Program-made: the position numbers and the translations under genes | Assembly: GCA_038523925.1 (NCBI GenBank) | Contig: JBCBIY010000005.1 | Span: forward strand, 27,716-91,715 | DNA from: Pseudomonadota bacterium | Lineage (GTDB): Bacteria; Pseudomonadota; Alphaproteobacteria; Rhizobiales; Hyphomicrobiaceae | Reading direction: 5' to 3' | Length of the DNA: 64,000 nt | The notes under the pieces: generated by a model | The model's input: the letters and a program-made list of their open reading frames with translations, nothing else | Database searches by the model: none | What the model was told of the DNA's origin: nothing | Part shown: in pieces, positions 33,811 to 48,147 of the stretch | Numbering within the stretch: the first letter of the stretch is position 1 | Layout: each line of letters begins with the position of its first letter

Positions 33811-35232
33811 TCAGCTCGTCACTTCAAACCACGTCCCCATACCGCCCTCGTGATGCTCCAGCATATGACAATGCAGCATCCACTTCCCCGGATTGTCGGC
33901 AACAAACGCAACCGTCTTCTTCTGCTGCCGGAACAGCATGATCGTGTCGCGCCACCAGGGTTCTGAGGCCGCGTCACCCACTTCTTTGAAGTGGTGTCCG
34001 TGGACGTGCATGGCGTGCGGCCACATCGAGTTGTTCTGGAACGTCAGCCTCACCGTTTGCCCGCGCTTCACGGCGAACAGCGGCGTCTTTGGCATCCCTG
34101 CTTGGCCTGCAAGCGCCCAGACATACCCCATCTCGCGGACCAGCTCGCGCATGCTCATGTAGTCGCCATTGATGCTGGCGCCGCGCATCCGGCCCATTGC
34201 GCCACCGTCCATGGGGATCGCGACGTCAACCGCGTTTGCGAGATCGAGCCGCTCGTCAATCGGATTGGCCTTGAGCGCGATCGGCGCGTCGGACGGCGCC
34301 TCCCGCAGCGGCGCGTCTTTGCTGTAGGCGAGGCTGCCAACGGTGACGACGTCGCGCGCGAGCACCATTTGGATGTCAGCGCGCGTGCCGGGTGCGGACA
34401 TGGCATCGACAATGACGTCTGCGCGTTGGCCGGGTCCAAGCAGCACGAGCCCGTCCGTCGCCGGACGCGGCGTCACGGGCTGTCCATCGACCGCGATGAT
34501 TGTCGGCTTATGGTCTGCGATGCGAACGGCAAAGACGTTTGCGTTTGCGACATTTATGAGTCGCAGGCGGAGGCGCGCGCCTGACCGGGTCGGGATCGCG
34601 TGCGCTGTCGTGCCGTTCAGTGTGAAAGTATTGCCAAGCCGGCCGCCATGGGCGCGATCGTGGATCGCGCCGAAGCTCGCGCCATGGACCTGGCCATCGG
34701 CATCCAGGCGCCAGTCGTCGAACATCAGCACATGATCGGCATCGACCGCGATCGGCTCGCGCTCTTCGATCACCAATGCACCGTAGAGCCCGCGCGCGAC
34801 CTGCTCTGACGACATTTTGTGCGGGTGAAACCAGAACGTGCCGGCGTCAGGGCAGCGGAAGCGATAGTCGAACGTCTCGCCCGTCGCGACCGGCTTTTGC
34901 GTCAGGCCGGGCACACCGTCCATCGCGTTGGCAATTCGGATCCCGTGCCAGTGCACCGTCGACGCGTGGGGAATGTCGTTGCGAAATCGGACGCGGAGGT
35001 CGTCGCCCTGGCGCACGCGCAGGACCGGTCCCGGCACGATGCCGCCGTAGCCCCAGACGGCTGTTTTCTGTCCGGCGATCAGCTCGGCTTCGCCCGCTTT
35101 CGCTGCGAGGTCGGCCGGCGCGCCGGCCCATAATTCACGCGGGAGTGCGAGGCTGCCGGTTAGCGCCGCTGCGCCGCCAACGACGGTTCGCCGGCTCATC
35201 ATGATCGTGGAGGCTGTGTGTGCGTCTGTCAT
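33811..35232 (-). CDS. multicopper oxidase (Tat-exported, CopA/CueO-like)
   Basis: Twin-arginine leader (MSRRTVVGGAAALTG). Copper-site motifs HWHG, HPH, HVHGHHF and HCHMLEHHEGGM. The ATG overlaps the cueR stop (ATGA). Confidence 0.85.
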   Translation of the reverse strand: MTDAHTASTIMMSRRTVVGGAAALTGSLALPRELWAGAPADLAAKAGEAELIAGQKTAVWGYGGIVPGPVLRVRQGDDLRVRFRNDIPHASTVHWHGIRIANAMDGVPGLTQKPVATGETFDYRFRCPDAGTFWFHPHKMSSEQVARGLYGALVIEEREPIAVDADHVLMFDDWRLDADGQVHGASFGAIHDRAHGGRLGNTFTLNGTTAHAIPTRSGARLRLRLINVANANVFAVRIADHKPTIIAVDGQPVTPRPATDGLVLLGPGQRADVIVDAMSAPGTRADIQMVLARDVVTVGSLAYSKDAPLREAPSDAPIALKANPIDERLDLANAVDVAIPMDGGAMGRMRGASINGDYMSMRELVREMGYVWALAGQAGMPKTPLFAVKRGQTVRLTFQNNSMWPHAMHVHGHHFKEVGDAASEPWWRDTIMLFRQQKKTVAFVADNPGKWMLHCHMLEHHEGGMGTWFEVTS

Positions 35233-35648
35233 GGTCGTTTCGTCGTCCTGTCGTCGCCTGCTGCGGCGTTGGCGAGATCGTCGATGATCGGGCAGTCCGG
35301 ACGGTTGTCGCCGCGGCAGTTATCGACGAGGTGGCGCAGTGTGGTTGCCATACCCTCAAGCGTGCGCATCTTGAGCTCGATGTCTTCGAGATGTTGACGG
35401 GCGACGCGCTTGACGTCGGCGCTTGCCCGCGCCCGGTCGGTGTAAAGGTCAAGCAGCTTTCGGCAGCTTTCGATGCCGAAGCCAAGATCGCGGGCGCGGT
35501 GAATGAAGGCCAGCCGGTGGACATCCGCATCCGAATAATCGCGATAGCCGTTCATGCGCCGCGCCGGCACAACCAGCGCGATGTCTTCGTAATAACGGAT
35601 TGTCTTGGCCGGCAGACCTGACCGTTCTGCCGCTTCGCCGATGTTCAT
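35229..35648 (-). CDS. cueR: Cu(I)-responsive MerR-family regulator
   Basis: MNIGEAAERSGLPAKTIRYYEDIALV HTH and a C-terminal metal loop CRGDNRPDC (C-x7-C), as in CueR/HmrR. An alternative start is at 35654. Confidence 0.85.
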   Translation of the reverse strand: MNIGEAAERSGLPAKTIRYYEDIALVVPARRMNGYRDYSDADVHRLAFIHRARDLGFGIESCRKLLDLYTDRARASADVKRVARQHLEDIELKMRTLEGMATTLRHLVDNCRGDNRPDCPIIDDLANAAAGDDRTTKRP

Positions 35649-35680
35649 CAGCACGCTCTCTCACTCGCAACGGGCACAGG

Positions 35681-36421
35681 CTAGACGATTAGGCCCGTCA
35701 GCATCCAGAGCCCCATACCGGCCATCATAACGTTCTCGGCCAGCGACACCGGACCAAGCGGCACATTGCTGTCGCCACCAACGCACGCGCATTTGAGTTC
35801 GCGCTTTTCGATATAGACGGCTTTGAAGACCGAGACCGCGCCGATTGTCCCGATGAACAACGCGACGGGCGCGGCGAGCCAGATGAGCGCGCCGGCGAGC
35901 ATCAGGACACCCGCGAGACCCTCCGCGTAGGGGTAGACGTAGCTGTAAGGCACCCACCGCTGCGCGAGCAGGTCGTAGTTTAGAAACATCGTCGAGAAGC
36001 TTTCGACATCCTTCAACTTCTGCAGCGCAAGAAGGCACATCGCGATTGCGATGAACCACTGGAAGGTTTGGCCCGCGAACAGCGTGCCCAGCGAAAGCCA
36101 CGTGACGGCGAGCGCCATCAGCGCGGCCATAGCAAACAGCATGAGGACCGGTTGATAGCTGGTCTCGCCCTTTGCGCGGACATGCCCGCCGAAGTGTTCG
36201 ACCAGGGCGTCATAGCCGCCGATGCGTTTGCCATTGATCCAGACCTGCGGCGTGGTCTTGACGTCGTGCGCGTCCTTGAACGCGTCGGTTTCAGCGCGCG
36301 TCGTCAGGTGCTGGTCGTCCACCTCAAAACCTTTGGTCTCGAGAAGGTGCTTCGCCTTCAATCCGTACGGGCAGGTGTGCTGATCCATCACCATACGGTG
36401 CAGCGTTGCGGCGTTCGACAT
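35681..36421 (-). CDS. glutaredoxin-domain / MauE-DoxX-type membrane protein fusion
   Basis: N-terminal Grx-like region (CPYGLKAKHLL...TTPQVWINGKRIGGYDAL) followed by four or more TM helices. A MauE-like CACVGG motif lies near the C-terminus. AGGAG lies 10 nt before the ATG. Confidence 0.7.
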   Translation of the reverse strand: MSNAATLHRMVMDQHTCPYGLKAKHLLETKGFEVDDQHLTTRAETDAFKDAHDVKTTPQVWINGKRIGGYDALVEHFGGHVRAKGETSYQPVLMLFAMAALMALAVTWLSLGTLFAGQTFQWFIAIAMCLLALQKLKDVESFSTMFLNYDLLAQRWVPYSYVYPYAEGLAGVLMLAGALIWLAAPVALFIGTIGAVSVFKAVYIEKRELKCACVGGDSNVPLGPVSLAENVMMAGMGLWMLTGLIV

Positions 36422-36471
36422 CGCAAGCGTGCTCCTATTGCGTCTTGTTCGTCGTTAAACGCACAAATCGC

Positions 36472-36494
36472 TCTTCCAGTTGCTGGAAGGTCAA
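36472..36494 (-). promoter_or_regulatory. CueR-type operator overlapping a -35 element
   Basis: The minus strand reads CTTGACCTTCCAGCAACTGGAAGAG. This contains TTGACC followed by a CCTTCC-N7-GGAAGA dyad with a perfect 7-bp core (CTTCCAG/CTGGAAG). It lies about 50-70 nt upstream of the grx-mauE ATG. No convincing -10 element was seen. Confidence 0.6.
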
Positions 36495-36542
36495 GGGGAC
36501 GGAGAAGCGCAGTGGTGCGCGCCGTGAGCACAGGAGGTCAAA

Positions 36543-36661
36543 CCGCCAGATGGGGTGGGATTCGAACCACCGCAGATCGCGTGTTCGCGATCTGCGCAAC
36601 AAAGAATCGTGGGTTCGGGCGCTACCGGCTGTGAGGCGCGAGGACGAAACCACCAACGAAA
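36543..36661 (-). repeat. tRNA-Ser 3'-end-derived tandem unit U1 (tail subtype A, degenerate core)
   Basis: 119 bp. The core is CGCCAGATGGGGTGGGATTCGAACC, 22/25 identical to the tRNA 3' end. The hairpin GCAGATCGCG-TGTT-CGCGATCTGC is intact. Confidence 0.85.
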
Positions 36662-36780
36662 CTGGCAGAGGGGGTGGGATTCGAACCACCGCAGATTGCG
36701 TGTTCGCGATCTGCGCAGCGAAGAATCGTGGGTTCGTGCGATACCGTCAGTGTTGGGCGAAGCAAGAACCACAAACGGAA
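36662..36780 (-). repeat. tandem unit U2 (tail subtype B)
   Basis: 119 bp with a 25/25 core including the CCA. The hairpin has one C-to-T change (GCAGATTGCG). Confidence 0.9.
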
Positions 36781-36899
36781 CTGGCAGAGGGGGTGGGATT
36801 CGAACCACCGCAGATCGCGTGTTCGCGATCTGCGCAACAAAGAATCGTGGGTTCGTGCGCTGCCGGCTGTGAGGCGCCAGGCAAAAACCACAAACGAAA
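36781..36899 (-). repeat. tandem unit U3 (tail subtype A)
   Basis: 119 bp, a 25/25 core and a perfect hairpin. Confidence 0.9.
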
Positions 36900-37018
36900 C
36901 TCGCAGAGGGGGTGGGATTCGAACCACCGCAGATCGCGTGTTCGCGATCTGCGCAACAAAGAATCGTGGGTTCGTGCGCTGCCGGCTGTGAGGCGCGAGG
37001 ACGAAACCACAAATGAAA
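36900..37018 (-). repeat. tandem unit U4 (tail subtype A)
   Basis: 119 bp, a 24/25 core (CCA becomes CGA) and a perfect hairpin. Confidence 0.9.
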
Positions 37019-37138
37019 CTGGCAGAGGGGGTGGGATTCGAACCACCGCAGATCGCGTGTTCGCGATCTGCGCCGCGAAGAATCGTGGGTTCGTCCGAGA
37101 CCGTCAGTGTTGGGCGAAGCAAGAACCACAAATGAAAC
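37019..37138 (-). repeat. tandem unit U5 (tail subtype B), abutting the tRNA
   Basis: 120 bp, a 25/25 core and a perfect hairpin at 37047-37070. Its tail is the sequence that directly follows the genuine tRNA. Confidence 0.9.
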
Positions 37139-37228
37139 TGGCAGAGGGGGTGGGATTCGAACCCACGAGACGCGTGAACGCCTGCCGGTTTTCAAGACCG
37201 GTGCCTTCAACCACTCGGCCACCCCTCC
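37139..37228 (-). tRNA. tRNA-Ser (anticodon UGA), class II with long variable arm, CCA encoded
   Basis: The reverse complement reads GGAGGGGTGGCCGAGTGGTTGAAGGCACCGGTCTTGAAAACCGGCAGGCGTTCACGCGTCTCGTGGGTTCGAATCCCACCCCCTCTGCCA. It folds with a 7-bp acceptor stem (G1:U72), anticodon loop CTTGAAA, and T arm GTGGG-TTCGAAT-CCCAC. Confidence 0.9.
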
Positions 37229-37358
37229 AGAGCGCTTGCATCTAGCGGTGCCGCATGTCGCCCGCAAGCCCCGCGACGCAATGATCTTTACGCGGAGCTA
37301 ACCAACCACGTGCTGTGTTAGCTTGGTGTTTCCGAATCGGGCGGGGGCTCGGGCTTCG

Positions 37359-38006
37359 ATGCAGATCAGATTGGCGTTGGCAGCGCTGCTGTCAGGTTGC
37401 GTAATCGCGGCCGGTTGCTCGCGGAGCGCCTCGGTGCCGCGCGCGCCGGATCATGGTTGGACGCCACAGCAGCGGTCTTTGCCACCGGTCGCGCAGACAC
37501 CGTTTTCCGCGCGCCAATTCCCGACCGATGGGCTGTTGGCGGCACCCGGTCCGCGCATCCCGAAGGGCGGCGGCCATGCAAAAGTCGGCCGGCCGTACGA
37601 AGTCAGGGGCCGATGGTACACACCGCGTCCGGATCCGGACTACGACGAGGTCGGCATCGCGTCGTTCTATGCCGGCGACTTCCACAACAAGAAGACCGCC
37701 AACGGCGAGTGGTTCGACATGAACGCGCTGACGGCCGCGCACAAAACGCTGCCGCTGCCGAGCTACGTGATCGTCCAGAACCTGCAGAACGGGCGGCGGC
37801 TCAAGGTGCGCGTCAATGATCGCGGGCCGTTTGTGGACGGGCGGATTATCGACCTGTCGCGGCGCGTCGCGCAGCTCCTCGGGATGGAGCAGCAGGGGCT
37901 CGCGCGCGTGCGGGTGACGTATGCAGGCAAAGCGCCGCTGAATGGCTCTGATGCGACTGAACGGGCCTACCTTGCGAAACAGTCATGGGCGCGGCGCATA
38001 CGCTGA
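37359..38006 (+). CDS. rlpA: septal ring lytic transglycosylase RlpA-family lipoprotein
   Basis: Lipobox (LLSGC) and a DPBB domain (ASFYAGDFHNKKTANGEWFD...VRVNDRGPFVDGRIIDLS). Confidence 0.8.
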   Translation: MQIRLALAALLSGCVIAAGCSRSASVPRAPDHGWTPQQRSLPPVAQTPFSARQFPTDGLLAAPGPRIPKGGGHAKVGRPYEVRGRWYTPRPDPDYDEVGIASFYAGDFHNKKTANGEWFDMNALTAAHKTLPLPSYVIVQNLQNGRRLKVRVNDRGPFVDGRIIDLSRRVAQLLGMEQQGLARVRVTYAGKAPLNGSDATERAYLAKQSWARRIR

Positions 38007-38106
38007 CGTCGGTCGCCTCGGCAATCACAGCGCCGGGGTTTCGGTTGACCCTTATGCTGGCGCACGGGATAGTGCGCCGACCAATCACCAATCGAAGAGT
38101 GGACCC

Positions 38107-39300
38107 ATGATCCGTCAGGCTTCGCTTCCGCGCGTGCCGATGAAGGCGCTGGTTTTCGCTCTGTCCGCCGTTGCGCTCATGGTGTCGGGGACGGCGAGCG
38201 TCGCGCAGAAGTCCGGGTTCACGACCAAGGCGAAGCAGGCGATTCTCATCGATGCAACGTCGAACGCGGTGCTATTTGCAAAGAACGCCGATGAGCGGAT
38301 GTCGCCTGCGAGCATGAGCAAGCTGATGACGCTTGCCGTGATCTTCCGTGGGCTTAAGGCTGGGCAGCTTAAGCCGGACGACAAGTTCGAGATGAGCGTG
38401 AACGCCTGGCGGACCGGCGGCGCGCCGTCCGGCACTTCGGCGATGATGGTCCCGGTCAATACCGAGGAGACACTCGAGGAACTCGTCAAAGGGATCGTCA
38501 TTCAGTCCGGCAACGACGCATCGATTGCGATCGCCGAGGGGCTGGCTGGCAGCGAAGCCGAGTTCGCGAAGATCATGACCGAACAGGGCCGCAAGATCGG
38601 CCTCAAGAATTCGACGTTTAAGAACGCGACCGGTCTCTACGATCCGGAACACCTGACGACGGCGCGTGATCTCGCGATCCTCGCGCAGCACATCATCGAG
38701 ACCTATCCCGAGCGCTACAAAATGTTTGCGGTCAAGGAGTTCCCATACCGCAAGCACAAGTTCCGCAACCGTAATCCGCTGCTCTATCTCGACATCGGCG
38801 CAGATGGTTTGAAGACGGGCTACATTTCGCAGGCGGGCTACGGGCTGGTCGCAAGTGCCGTACAGGACGGCCGGCGGCTGATTGCCGTCGTCAATGGGCT
38901 GAAGACGCGCGCTGAACGCAAGCGCGAGAGCCGGCGGCTTCTCGAATGGGGGTTCCGCGGGTTTACGCAGTTCAAGCTCTTCAACGAGGGCGCGGTCATT
39001 GGCCAGGCGCGGGTTTGGGGCGGCAGTCAGTTCTTTGTCGAACTGACGGGTAAAGGTCCGCTGACGGTGGTGCTGCCGCGGTTTCCGGCAAACCAGAAGC
39101 TGCGCGCCGAAATTGTCTATGACGGCCCTCTGAAGCCACCGATCGCGCAGGGGGCCAAAGTGGCGCGGCTTCGCGTCAGGAGTTCTGCGGGCGCCGTCAA
39201 CGAAGTCCCTCTTTATGCCGCGACCGACATTGAAACCGCGGGCGTGGTGTGGCGCGGGCTCGATTCCGTGTTTCATCTCGCGTTTAGCTGGATTCCGTGA
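38107..39300 (+). CDS. D-alanyl-D-alanine carboxypeptidase (low-MW PBP, PBP5/6 family)
   Basis: Signal peptide and motifs SMSKLMT (SxxK), SGND (SxN) and LKTGY (KTG). Confidence 0.85.
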   Translation: MIRQASLPRVPMKALVFALSAVALMVSGTASVAQKSGFTTKAKQAILIDATSNAVLFAKNADERMSPASMSKLMTLAVIFRGLKAGQLKPDDKFEMSVNAWRTGGAPSGTSAMMVPVNTEETLEELVKGIVIQSGNDASIAIAEGLAGSEAEFAKIMTEQGRKIGLKNSTFKNATGLYDPEHLTTARDLAILAQHIIETYPERYKMFAVKEFPYRKHKFRNRNPLLYLDIGADGLKTGYISQAGYGLVASAVQDGRRLIAVVNGLKTRAERKRESRRLLEWGFRGFTQFKLFNEGAVIGQARVWGGSQFFVELTGKGPLTVVLPRFPANQKLRAEIVYDGPLKPPIAQGAKVARLRVRSSAGAVNEVPLYAATDIETAGVVWRGLDSVFHLAFSWIP

Positions 39301-45825: not shown

Positions 45826-47328
45826 GTGACAGATCTGACCAAGCTGACCCTGGCCGACGCGCGCGATGGCTTGCGCGACAAGTCGTTTTCCGCGCGCGAA
45901 CTTTGCGATGCGCACCTTGCAGCCGTCGAAGCGGCAAACCCGGCGCTCAATGCCTTCATCGAGGTTACTTCTGAGACGGCGCGGGCCGAGGCTGACGCGA
46001 GTGACAAGAAGATCGCAGCCGGCGACGCCGGGCGGCTTGAGGGCCTGCCGATTGGCATCAAGGATCTGTTCGCGACACAGGGTGTGCACACGCAGGCGTG
46101 CAGCCACATCCTCGATGGGTTCAAGCCGGAGTATGAATCGTTCGTCACATCGCAGTTGCGCGGTGCCGGCGCGGTCATGCTTGGCAAGCTCAACATGGAT
46201 GAGTTTGCCATGGGCTCGTCGAATGAGACGAGCTACTACGGGCCGGTGACCAGCCCATGGCGGCGGACAACGGCCGATGGCGCAACTGATGATGCACCGC
46301 TGGTGCCGGGAGGGTCCTCCGGCGGGTCCGCCGCCGCGGTCGCAGCCAACCTTTGCCTCGCGGCAACCGCAACCGATACCGGCGGCTCGATCCGCCAACC
46401 GGCAGCGCTCACTGGCACGGTCGGCATCAAGCCAACCTACGGCCGCTGCTCGCGCTGGGGCATCGTGGCCTTCGCCTCGTCGCTGGATCAGGCCGGCCCG
46501 ATCACGCGGACCGTCCGCGATAGCGCGATCCTGCTGCGCGATATGGCGGGCCACGATGCGCGGGACACAACGAGCGTTGATACGCCCGTGCCGGACTATG
46601 AGGCGGCGATTGGCGGCTCGGTGAAGGGGCTGCGCGTTGGCATCCCCAAACAATACCGCATCGACGGCATGAGCGCGGAGGCGGAAGCGCTGTGGCAGCA
46701 GGGCATCGCGTGGCTCGAAGCCGCCGGCATGACGACCCGCGAAATCGATCTGCCCCACACGAAGTACGCCCTGCCCGCCTACTACATCGTTGCGCCGGCT
46801 GAGGCCTCGTCGAACCTCGCGCGCTACGACGGCATGCGCTACGGCCTGCGCGTGGCAGGCGACGATCTCGTCAGCACCTACGAGAAGACCCGCGGCGCGG
46901 GCTTTGGTGCTGAGGTGAAACGGCGCGTCCTGATCGGGACGTACGTTCTCTCTGCCGGCTACTACGACGCCTATTACCTGAAGGCACAAAAGGTGCGCTC
47001 GCTTATCAAGCGCGACTTTGATCAGGCGTGGGCGGACGTGGATGTCGTGTTGACGCCAACAACACCTTCGGCGGCGTTCGCTCACGGAGAGAAAGCCGGT
47101 GACCCCATCGCGATGTACCTCGAGGACATCTTCACGGTGACGGCCAACATGGCCGGGCTACCAGGCATCTCGGTCCCAGGTGGGCTCTCGTCGAACGGGC
47201 TGCCCATGGGTCTGCAGGTCATTGGCAAGCCGTTCGATGAAGAGACGCTCTTTAAGGTCGGCGCGGTAATCGAGACCGAAGCGGGTCGGTTCGCGCCGTC
47301 CGAAGCCTGGTGGACACGCGGCAACTAA
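45826..47328 (+). CDS. gatA: Asp/Glu-tRNA amidotransferase subunit A
   Basis: Amidase signature [13 protein letters not shown]...[11 protein letters not shown]. It follows gatC. Confidence 0.9.
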
Positions 47329-47343
47329 AGCGTTGGGTTTCTC

Positions 47344-47655
47344 TTTTTTGGTCCAACCGCGCTGCAGCGCGTTGGCACACGGGTCCGCCAGGACATCCGC
47401 TGCGGCGCGCGGCGCTAGCCGAAGGCCCGCTCCGTGCGCCTCGCTCACTTTTTTGGTCCAACCGCGCTGCAGCGCGTTGGCACACGAGTCCGGCCGCCAT
47501 CCGCTGCGGCGCGCTACGCTGGCCGAAGGCCCGCTCCGTGCACCTCGCTCACTTTTTTGGTCCAACCGCGCTGCCGCGCGTTGGCACACGAGTCCGCCAG
47601 GACATCCGCTGCGGCGCGCTGCGCTGGCCGAAGGCCCGCTCCGTGCGCCTCGCTC
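47344..47655. repeat. three tandem intergenic repeat units of about 104 bp (REP/RIME-like)
   Basis: Units start with TTTTTTGGTCCAACCGCGCTGCAGCGCGTTGGCACACG at 47344, 47449 and 47553. Each contains two hairpins: CCAAC(C)GCGC-TGCA-GCGCGTTGG and GGCC-GAA-GGCC. Confidence 0.85.
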
Positions 47656-47802
47656 TTTTCTTTGTGGGGTTAGGGGCGGGGGCGGCCGGAGTACCTGTGA
47701 CAAAGGCGGCGAGGGTCGCGTGACGGGGGCTTGGCGGACATGGTACGTGCTCACACAACGCGCAGGAGCGCGGCTCGATTGACGCAAGCGACGGGACGGC
47801 GA

Positions 47803-48147
47803 ATGGCCAAAGCACCGGCAGACTGTAAGGACATGGGTGACGTGCGCGTCGAGATCGACCGCCTCGATAAAGCGCTGGTCGCGCTCATCGCAGAGCGCTT
47901 CGGCTACGTCGAGCGCGCCTGGCAGATCAAGTCACAGGAAAATGCGGCTGCAAACGTACCATGGCGCAATCAACAAGTGATCGATCGGGTCCGCGCCCAG
48001 GCTGAGGCCGACGGTGTGTCACCGGACCTCTGCGAGGCCCTGTGGCGGCAGATGATCGGCTGGTTCATCCAATACGAAGAACAGAAGATGCTTGCTGAGA
48101 ACGAGGACGGGACCGACACGACGACCGGGACCGACAAGGGGGCCTGA
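47803..48147 (+). CDS. chorismate mutase (AroQ class)
   Basis: An RVEIDRLDKALVALIAERFGYVERAWQIK helix typical of AroQ. The start is at MAKAPADC; the listed 47731 start is an extension. Confidence 0.65.
   Translation: MAKAPADCKDMGDVRVEIDRLDKALVALIAERFGYVERAWQIKSQENAAANVPWRNQQVIDRVRAQAEADGVSPDLCEALWRQMIGWFIQYEEQKMLAENEDGTDTTTGTDKGA

Follow-up and report, generated by a model that had tools for sequence, protein, structure and literature searches.

In a 64-kb window of an uncultured alphaproteobacterial genome (contig JBCBIY010000005.1, positions 27,716 to 91,715; throughout, the window means this whole stretch), the gene for tRNA-Ser(UGA) is followed on its own strand by five head-to-tail units of 119 bp (36544-37138), each ending in a copy of the last 25 nt of that tRNA. 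We assign this array, with considerable confidence, to the tRNA-linked repeats (TLRs), as a representative from outside the enterobacteria. The class goes back to a 1978 report by Egan & Landy, and Rudd compiled a catalogue of it in 1999 (PMC8144298, Stenum et al. 2021). A TLR is defined as a sequence in a tRNA or rRNA operon whose last 18-19 bp are the 3' end of the gene immediately upstream, and E. coli K-12 has 22 of them at ten loci, with one to five per locus (PMC8144298). The window array agrees with this description in that: 1) the first unit, U5, begins on the minus strand at 37138, the base directly after the tRNA 3' end; 2) identity to the tRNA 3' end, for which at least 18-19 bp is expected, is 25/25, 24/25, 25/25, 25/25 and 22/25 in successive units counted from the tRNA; 3) the copies, one to five in the class, are arranged head to tail and number 5.2 at a period of 119. 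A first-pass annotation made from the sequence of the window had not recognized the arrangement as a described element; since TLRs have been described since 1978 and all their positional features are present here, that statement has to be withdrawn.

The tRNA gene and its repeated 3' end

ARAGORN found a single tRNA in the whole 64 kb, tRNA-Ser(UGA), and the Rfam tRNA model agrees on its position and strand, as given in the first-pass annotation. As was also expected there, this is the one intact tRNA-Ser. ARAGORN detected no cloverleaf and called no pseudo-tRNA in the units, and the Rfam model gave no second match in the array at E<=10. Tandem Repeats Finder reports a period of 119 with 5.2 copies, 88% matches and a score of 951 at 36540..37163. 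The terminal 25-mer of the tRNA, GGTTCGAATCCCACCCCCTCTGCCA (read on the minus strand), occurs at 37139 (the tRNA itself), 37020, 36901, 36782, 36663 and 36544 with 0, 0, 1, 0, 0 and 3 mismatches, respectively, which reproduces the identities first reported for each unit. The five tandem units of the first-pass annotation are likewise recovered, whereas the single 120-bp period it listed is not, every spacing being 119. None of 100 shuffles gave any match to GGTTCGAATCCCACCCCCTCTGCCA, and the 64-kb window holds no copy of this core beyond the tRNA and the array. Similarly, the last 19 nt of the tRNA recur at +119, +238, +357 and +476 with at most 2 mismatches.

The units carry the record of their own amplification. 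All of them have CGGTGG where the tRNA has CGTGGG, so that, as had been proposed, they descend from one amplified ancestor. They fall into two subtypes in the order A-B-B-A-B from the tRNA, with about 100 of the 119 positions identical between subtypes. The much closer agreement of U5 with U2 and of U4 with U1 (Table 1) implies that the latest amplification involved a three-unit block, and a repeat search indeed finds a 357-bp block repeated at 95% identity. Beyond the most distal unit, the stretch 36510-36543 is 64-73% identical to the unit over a 59-nt register that includes the core, the flank alone agreeing at 18-23 of 40 positions; this weak likeness to a unit start brings the array to about 5.2-5.3 copies. 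The tRNA-Ser has a G1-U72 wobble atop its acceptor stem (GGAGGGG / CCCCTCT) where related loci have C72, and the unusual U72 (T in the DNA) is carried by the tRNA and all five units, which suggests either gene conversion between units and tRNA or amplification after this change had arisen. The array had also been called non-coding. The reading frame does shift in every unit, yet long open reading frames (ORFs) of 258 aa on the minus strand and 279 aa on the plus strand traverse the array; we regard these as spurious, given that they include the tRNA and that the frame changes with each unit.

As a control we re-examined the tyrT/tyrV locus of E. coli K-12 (L222; L numbers denote individual loci), the type example of the class, whose repeat gives rise to rtT RNA and which is annotated with rttR and tpr and gives four matches of 133-137 bits to the Rfam family RtT (RF00391). 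There tyrV is followed by a 178-bp repeat in 3.1 copies of 95% identity whose units end in AATCCTTCCCCCACCACCA, and the 19-nt repeat test behaves alike for this locus and the window. The two share same-strand head-to-tail units that start directly after the tRNA, a fractional last copy, unit ends that copy the tRNA 3' end including CCA, and the lack of an integrase or cargo. They differ in the tRNA (tRNA-Tyr versus tRNA-Ser(UGA)), in unit length (178 versus 119 nt), in the extent of identity (18-19 nt versus 25 nt that include the whole T-loop) and in the host. The E. coli gene for tRNA-Ser(UGA), serT, is followed by a plain intrinsic terminator and has no TLR. Three explanations had been offered for the array: an amplified landing pad, remnants of integration and a co-transcribed series of tRNA-like 3' modules. 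The last fits best, because E. coli TLRs are understood in that way (PMC8144298; tyrV locus re-checked here), while the integrase scar and the landing pad have background support only.

Table 1. Positions of the tRNA-Ser(UGA) gene, the repeat units, their internal segments and flanking signals (window coordinates)
Feature	Position	Strand	Basis or remarks
tRNA-Ser(UGA), 90 nt, CCA encoded	37139..37228	(-)	ARAGORN; Rfam tRNA 61.3 bits
Unit U5, subtype A, 119 nt, nearest the tRNA	37020..37138	(-)	25/25 to tRNA 3' end; 113/119 identical to U2
Unit U4, subtype B, 119 nt	36901..37019	(-)	24/25, ends GCGA; 113/119 identical to U3, 111/119 to U1
Unit U3, subtype B, 119 nt	36782..36900	(-)	25/25 to tRNA 3' end
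Unit U2, subtype A, 119 nt	36663..36781	(-)	25/25; one G-to-A breaks one hairpin pair
Unit U1, subtype B, 119 nt, most distal	36544..36662	(-)	22/25; 3' end decayed to CCCATCTGGCG
Degenerate start of a sixth unit (extra ~0.2-0.3 copy)	36510..36543	(-)	weak repeat similarity
U-rich linker GUUUCAUUUGUGG, directly 3' of CCA	37126..37138; other units: minus 119 each	(-)	T counts; folds
T-arm-derived segment CGAACCCACG	37084..37093, 36965-36974, 36846-36855, 36727-36736, 36608-36617	(-)	
Hairpin H2, 11-bp perfect stem CGCAGATCGCG/CGCGATCTGCG, loop AACA	37047..37073, 36928-36954, 36809-36835, 36690-36716, 36571-36597	(-)	
Altered T-arm GGTGGTTCGAATCCCACC	37030..37047, 36911-36928, 36792-36809, 36673-36690, 36554-36571	(-)	five exact copies; tRNA 2 mismatches away
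Acceptor 3' strand, discriminator G, CCA CCCTCTGCCA	37020..37029	(-)	identical to local tRNA
Candidate tRNA-Ser promoter CTTGCG-N17-CTAGAT, ends ~11 nt before tRNA 5' end	37240..37268	(-)	by eye
TTGACC and dyad CCTTCC-N7-GGAAG, boundary feature outside the array	36463..36494	(-)	by eye

Unit anatomy, related loci and predicted folds

In the sense of the tRNA, each unit consists of a U-rich linker, a T-arm-derived segment, the hairpin H2, an altered T-arm, and the acceptor 3' strand with G73 and CCA, the part that is not tRNA amounting to about 94 nt. The linker has 8-9 T in its first 15 nt in the window units (6-9 in related ones) and is unpaired in every predicted fold. The T-arm-derived segment CGAACCCACG is the exact reverse complement of CGTGGGTTCG of the tRNA, so that each unit contains a stretch of 9-11 nt that is exactly antisense to the 5' strand of the tRNA T-arm; in the window units it pairs with GUGGUU(C) to close a stem, and the variable insert of about 30 nt enclosed by this stem is what separates subtypes A and B. 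H2 abuts the T-arm mimic at the position which the long variable arm occupies in tRNA-Ser, and by eye the tip of the unit hairpin, CGCGAACACGCG, resembles GGCGTTCACGCG of the tRNA. The similarity to the tRNA thus plausibly extends 5' of the 25-nt core into the position of the variable arm. In the altered T-arm the GTGGG of the tRNA has become GGTGG, which shifts the 5-bp stem by one and leaves an 8-nt loop. We also considered the units as minimal aminoacylatable tRNAs and rejected this possibility: neither the window nor L020 has a 5' acceptor strand, and L009 and L022 have only part of one.

The unit-specific 18-mer GGTGGTTCGAATCCCACC was scanned across one genome per species of GTDB, the window's own genome not being among the matches. 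Of 38 matches, mostly unrelated singles, four are relevant; they carry the identical 18-mer and all lie directly 3' of a tRNA-Ser(UGA) gene. Three are Parvibaculaceae chromosomes, in each of which the 18-mer is found at one locus: L020, in a record titled as the complete chromosome of a metagenome-assembled genome (MAG), with a 107-bp unit in 4.3 copies of 98% identity; L009, a MAG chromosome with one unit; and L037, likewise a MAG chromosome, with one unit and the start of a second (1.3 copies). The fourth, L022, is a single unit in another alphaproteobacterial MAG. The region upstream of the tRNA in L037 matches that of L020 by eye, so these two loci look orthologous; in general the neighboring genes differ among the loci, indicating that the module travels with the tRNA rather than with a gene neighborhood. 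The copy numbers of 1, 1.3 and 4.3 among the Parvibaculaceae loci are of the kind that tandem-repeat dynamics would produce. In Actinomycetota MAGs (L002, L011, L016, L029), GGTGGTTCGAATCCCACC is seen by eye to end a tRNA-Ser(CGA)-like sequence with an oversized variable region. The first-pass annotation had raised the possibility of a dispersed repeat family. We found no support for a repeat of the REP (repetitive extragenic palindromic) or MITE (miniature inverted-repeat transposable element) type, as the unit motifs occur only in the array within the window and at one tRNA-Ser(UGA) locus per Parvibaculaceae record; a synteny walk based on RlpA gave no extra unit copies.

A comparison of the 12 aligned units from five lineages (unit lengths 103-119 nt, window included) showed that: 1) two motifs are invariant, the altered T-arm GGTGGTTCGAATCCCACC and CGAACCCAC, which stands 31-37 nt upstream of it. 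2) H2 is a perfect hairpin of 7-11 bp, which abuts the altered T-arm or overlaps it by one base, in three unrelated sequences according to lineage group; its stem is GGCAATGCGC/GCGCATTGCC in Parvibaculaceae, decayed to 7 bp in L037, and CCGCGATGC/GCATCGCGG in L022. 3) The acceptor strand of each unit follows its own local tRNA, being CCCCTCTGCCA, CCCCTCCGCCA or CCCATCCGCCA, and the stretch of acceptor strand and CCA at the related loci is CCCTCCGCCA or CCATCCGCCA. The short shared derived motifs make common descent of the non-tRNA part probable. That pairing in H2 is kept while its sequence is replaced suggests, as far as the aligned sequences go, a constraint on the folded strand rather than on protein-binding DNA.

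Predicted folds of the units in L020, L009 and L022 are more stable than those of shuffled sequences (z -5.4 to -6.3), and those of the window units have z scores of -1.8 to -4.2. In the former, one long hairpin forms in which GGUGGGAU..CGAACCCAC(C) pairs with GGUGGUUCGAAUCCCACC, enclosing H2 and leaving the acceptor strand largely as a 3' tail. The window units favor three local hairpins, and forcing the long-range pairing costs 0.7-9 kcal/mol. When the tRNA is folded together with two units, the thermodynamic prediction pairs CGAACCCACG with the 5' strand of the real tRNA T-arm, so that this region has three predicted partners: GUGGUU(C) near the unit 5' end, the T-arm mimic, or the real T-arm. 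The first E. coli tyrV unit is comparable to L020, L009 and L022, since in it GGGGAAGGAU pairs with AUCCUUCCCC, so that here too the tRNA-derived 3' strand is paired upstream and the acceptor tail is free. An apparent compensatory pair, GGCAG/CUGCC versus GGUGG/CCGCC, is inconsistent across the unit subtypes and was not relied on.

A proposed processed trailer and its alternatives

We propose that the amplified segment was a trailer of about 94 nt joined to a copy of the terminal 25 nt of tRNA-Ser(UGA), and that head-to-tail copies of it arose when the repeated tRNA 3' ends recombined unequally or slipped; the latest step would be the duplication of the 357-bp block. Because no terminator separates the tRNA from the units, the tRNA promoter would drive the array as one precursor, in which each unit would fold into hairpins formed by the T-arm-derived segment, the hairpin at the variable-arm position and the altered T-arm. 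The enzymes of tRNA 3'-end maturation would then act after every unit, an RNase E-type enzyme cutting within the linker and exonucleases then trimming the RNA as far as the structured end. RNase E prefers single-stranded U-rich sites (PMC5222698), and from the composition and the unpaired state of the linker we infer that it may be a cleavage site of this type. The outcome would be the tRNA plus about five RNAs of ~119 nt, comparable to the rtT RNA of E. coli. We favor this mechanism as a whole, in which a 3' trailer transcribed with the tRNA would be cleaved at every tRNA-like 3' end to give rtT-like RNAs, with somewhat better than even confidence.

Several known RNAs offer parallels to parts of this proposal. 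Among TLRs, co-transcription and processing into discrete RNAs have been demonstrated only for rtT and for RrA, RrB and RrF. The 5S-linked TLRs RrA, RrB and RrF of E. coli, the model for the processing step proposed here, are transcribed by read-through and processed, and their RNAs have been detected and bind Hfq and CsrA; their repeated 3' end has been proposed as an RNase E signal (PMC8144298). Their own features are a location after 5S rRNA between two terminators, a single copy and the binding of Hfq/CsrA through GGA motifs. Similarly, 3'ETS-leuZ of the E. coli glyW-cysT-leuZ transcript (PMC8144298) is an RNA released from a tRNA precursor trailer by normal tRNA processing, and is distinguished by being a functional sponge of small RNAs (sRNAs), present in a single copy, which pairs with specific sRNAs through Hfq. 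Past the tRNA, the window aligns with a single Rfam family, sX4 (RF02223), whose match covers the tRNA and U5 at 37038-37242 (-) with 53.0 bits (E 2e-9) and so falls short of the gathering threshold (70 bits). The match drops to 32-33 bits in L009 and L022, where it covers no more than the first ~40 nt of the trailer and does not reach H2 or the T-arm mimic. The sX4 model, from Xanthomonas, starts with a tRNA-Ser, which is followed by a trailer hairpin and a G-rich, T-arm-like start, and the RNA was seen on Northern blots at 280-300 nt (PMC3300014), evidence that at least one proteobacterium expresses a trailer of this kind. We treat this below-threshold connection as a lead only. Low-scoring Rfam matches to snoZ206, Plastid-psbl-rps4, NLPC-P60 and sR23 were set aside as noise.

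Several observations weigh against the processed-trailer proposal. Transcription, processing and function are what we infer from the anatomy of the array and from E. coli precedents, and most E. coli TLRs have no known function, the 5S-linked RrA, RrB and RrF being the exception (PMC8144298). RtT (threshold 45 bits) has no match in 35500-38500 even at E<=10, so that the parallel with rtT is one of arrangement and not of demonstrated homology. The RNAalifold consensus from the MAFFT alignment was uninformative, H2 being misaligned between lineages, and the invariant helices show no covariation among only 3-5 independent lineages. When a profile was made from the units outside the window, all five window units were found at E 1e-7 to 1e-5, with the tRNA itself scoring only slightly lower (2e-5). 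Finally, no unit is present in L162, L165 and L168, which are closer relatives with the tRNA-Ser/rlpA synteny preserved, so the module is sporadic and dispensable.

An unlikely alternative, though one that deserves a hearing, is that the tRNA 3' region, or the whole tRNA-Ser gene, was duplicated in tandem and is now decaying, the array being neutral in effect and kept only by repeat dynamics and gene conversion. The absence of the module from close syntenic relatives and the lack of known function of most E. coli TLRs would both agree with this, and decay is visible in the 22/25 identity of the distal unit and in H2 of L037 and U2. Furthermore, both conserved motifs can be read as derivatives of the T-arm. 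A metagenome scan for a tRNA-Ser anticodon arm with two T-loops 99-129 nt apart returned at least 120 loci (L040-L159), and among the matches listed about 105 of 120 are tandem tRNA genes with a T-loop spacing of 99-129 nt, the second gene being mostly tRNA-Ser; the unit periods of 103-119 nt lie within this spacing, which would allow the units to have arisen by decay of tandem tRNA copies. Against neutrality, the altered 18-mer and CGAACCCAC have stayed invariant while H2 and the linkers diverged completely, and H2 is still a perfect hairpin of 9-11 bp in three unrelated versions, although neutral decay should destroy it. Nor do ARAGORN and the Rfam tRNA model detect so much as a pseudo-tRNA among the units.

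We also weighed a mobile-element origin, in which the units would be scars of the attachment (att) type, tandem integrase-less elements of the CIME (cis-mobilizable element) type, or an amplified secondary attB pad used in trans. The repeated segment is a real att core: GGTTCGAATCCCACCCCCTCTGCCA is a genuine integration target found in 53 viral-contig stretches of IMG/VR, 40 of which pass a simple motif test for a complete tRNA-Ser(UGA) gene, while the remainder are other tRNA-Ser genes and a few truncated att-like copies. In the truncated copies (L178, L206, L218, L189) the identity begins at about the point where it does in the units, and three of the four ORFs scanned beside them are tyrosine integrases (PF00589), the fourth (L206) having no Pfam match. 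Moreover, the unit keeps the whole T-loop and 3' strand, which could serve as a secondary attB, its distribution among relatives is sporadic, and attL/attR and CIME-type remnants are likewise direct repeats of a 20-50 nt tRNA 3' segment. Unlike such remnants, the window array has a short, fixed spacing, with ~94 nt between cores and no integrase, excisionase or cargo found, and its hairpin sequence turns over. No flanking gene was recognized as an integrase (six are housekeeping or copper-resistance genes by Pfam, and the others were read by eye from their translations; the remaining window ORFs were not profile-scanned), and tblastn of 24 viral-contig ORFs of 300-520 aa that lie beside tRNA-Ser 3'-end copies, three of them confirmed integrases, gave a best E of 0.024 against the 64 kb, in agreement with the first-pass annotation that no integrase is recognizable there. 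The same annotation had suggested looking for plasmid or phage carriers. The core does occur beside PF00589 integrases on viral contigs, whereas searches of 72,556 plasmids and 50,697 phage records did not find the unit, matches in phages being confined to the tRNA-Ser. The window has no further core copy, and the perfect pairing of H2 through complete replacement of its sequence is unlike arm-type protein-binding sites. In addition, E. coli has repeats of this class behind 5S rRNA genes (PMC8144298), a setting for which integration is not usually invoked. We therefore consider a mobile-element origin distinctly improbable: the window array is an alphaproteobacterial TLR and not a new kind of mobile-element scar.

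A long shot, in our estimate, is that the units are functional mimics of the tRNA-Ser 3' half, acting as decoys for enzymes or toxins, or a folding switch of tRNA-Ser. SerRS and the enzymes that act on the T-loop or the 3' end contact the long variable arm, the T-arm, the acceptor 3' strand, G73 and CCA. Released units, or units within the precursor, could hence titrate SerRS, CCA-adding enzymes, enzymes of the TruB/TrmA type or tRNA-targeting toxins. As a switch, the two modeled conformations, which lie within 0.7-9 kcal/mol of each other in the window units, could gate the folding of tRNA-Ser.

That a single trailer was wrongly expanded to five copies during assembly is hardly credible: although short-read contigs of close relatives end at both array edges and copy number is uncertain in such data, such breaks are expected of a genuine repeat, the five units are set apart from one another by 6-22 substitutions in the structured order A-B-B-A-B, and the related 4.3-copy array of L020 lies inside a record titled as a complete chromosome. 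The relatives in question are two independent short-read assemblies of near-identical genomes, L160 (GCA_039820105.1), whose contig (L160 1-8) stops 8 nt after the CCA, and L001 (Logan SRR22824296), whose contig (L001 1-160) stops at the other edge; with distinguishable copies and breaks of this kind, the array is probably not an artefact.

Genomic context and wider occurrence

The alphaproteobacterial sigma-70 consensus is CTTGAC-N17-CTATAT, which the candidate promoter upstream of the tRNA (Table 1) resembles; this stretch is conserved in L160, a 98% relative. A scan of 36300-37450 for E. coli-type promoters called none, the candidate site included, and no intrinsic terminator was found in the same interval, including the junction of tRNA and units. 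Upstream of the tRNA, translations and Pfam labels on related loci identify rlpA, a D-Ala-D-Ala carboxypeptidase gene and tmk, and from the gene order we take the genes beyond tmk as holB and metG. The best database matches of RlpA are a 98%-identical MAG protein and then one of 71%, with farther ones labeled Hyphomicrobiaceae or Methyloligellaceae, and the host is accordingly an uncultured alphaproteobacterium of which few relatives have been sequenced. Downstream of the array and on its strand, Pfam identifies a MauE/glutaredoxin-like protein (35681-36421), a MerR regulator (35229-35654), a multicopper oxidase (33811-35232) and an LTXXQ protein. This copper operon lies directly 3' of the array with no recognizable terminator between them, and the TTGACC and dyad at its boundary look like a copper-responsive promoter-operator of the CueR/MerR type, which we take to be similar to E. 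coli PcopA. A role of the array as an insulator of the copper operon from tRNA read-through was considered and rejected, as the downstream context differs in L020, which has a convergent gene, and in L022. Elsewhere in the window, a second non-coding tandem array (47343-47655; 105 bp in 3.0 copies, 92% identity), each unit of which has a T-run followed by the palindrome CCAACCGCGCTGCAGCGCGTTGG, sits between a 500-aa ORF (45826-47328), which by eye we take as gatA, and a 138-aa ORF (47731-48147), which by eye may be a chorismate mutase.

We applied the 19-nt test to about 220 fetched loci, counting cases in which the last 19 nt of a tRNA are repeated no more than 700 nt downstream and outside other tRNA genes. 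The test recovers the window, the four related loci and the E. coli control, as well as a second tRNA-Ser(UGA) family with units of 101-109 nt in one or two copies (L062, L072, L143). This family, from other metagenomic lineages, is unrelated to that of the window; its units, of which L062 has two of 101 nt, contain a hairpin GCGGGC...GCCCGC followed by CTCAAGTTCGAATCCCTCCCTCTCCGCCA, that is, the T-loop and 3' strand without the T-stem 5' strand. Isolated cases are L053, L080, L093 and L014, and in the halophilic archaeon J07HX64 (L034 1504-1830) a tRNA-Arg(UCU) has three partial 3'-end copies at +100, +145 and +249. About 40 viral-contig tRNA-Ser(UGA) genes, picked by the 25-mer alone, show no 19-nt repeat, and among the matches listed from the metagenome T-loop scan there was no new member of the window family, only other partial-copy cases. 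TLR-like trailers are thus recurrent but uncommon.

The TLR arrangement is therefore not confined to the enterobacteria, a distinct family of it being found on tRNA-Ser(UGA) in Alphaproteobacteria. In this family a hairpin conserved in structure and free in sequence, together with two invariant motifs derived from the T-arm, provides a first hint of constraint. For genome annotation, it is relevant that short-read assemblies break at such arrays, which can also be misread as scars of integration at tRNA genes. Should the units prove to act as tRNA-Ser mimics or as a folding switch, the TLRs as a class would be regulators of tRNA metabolism, or decoys within it, and not inert trailers.

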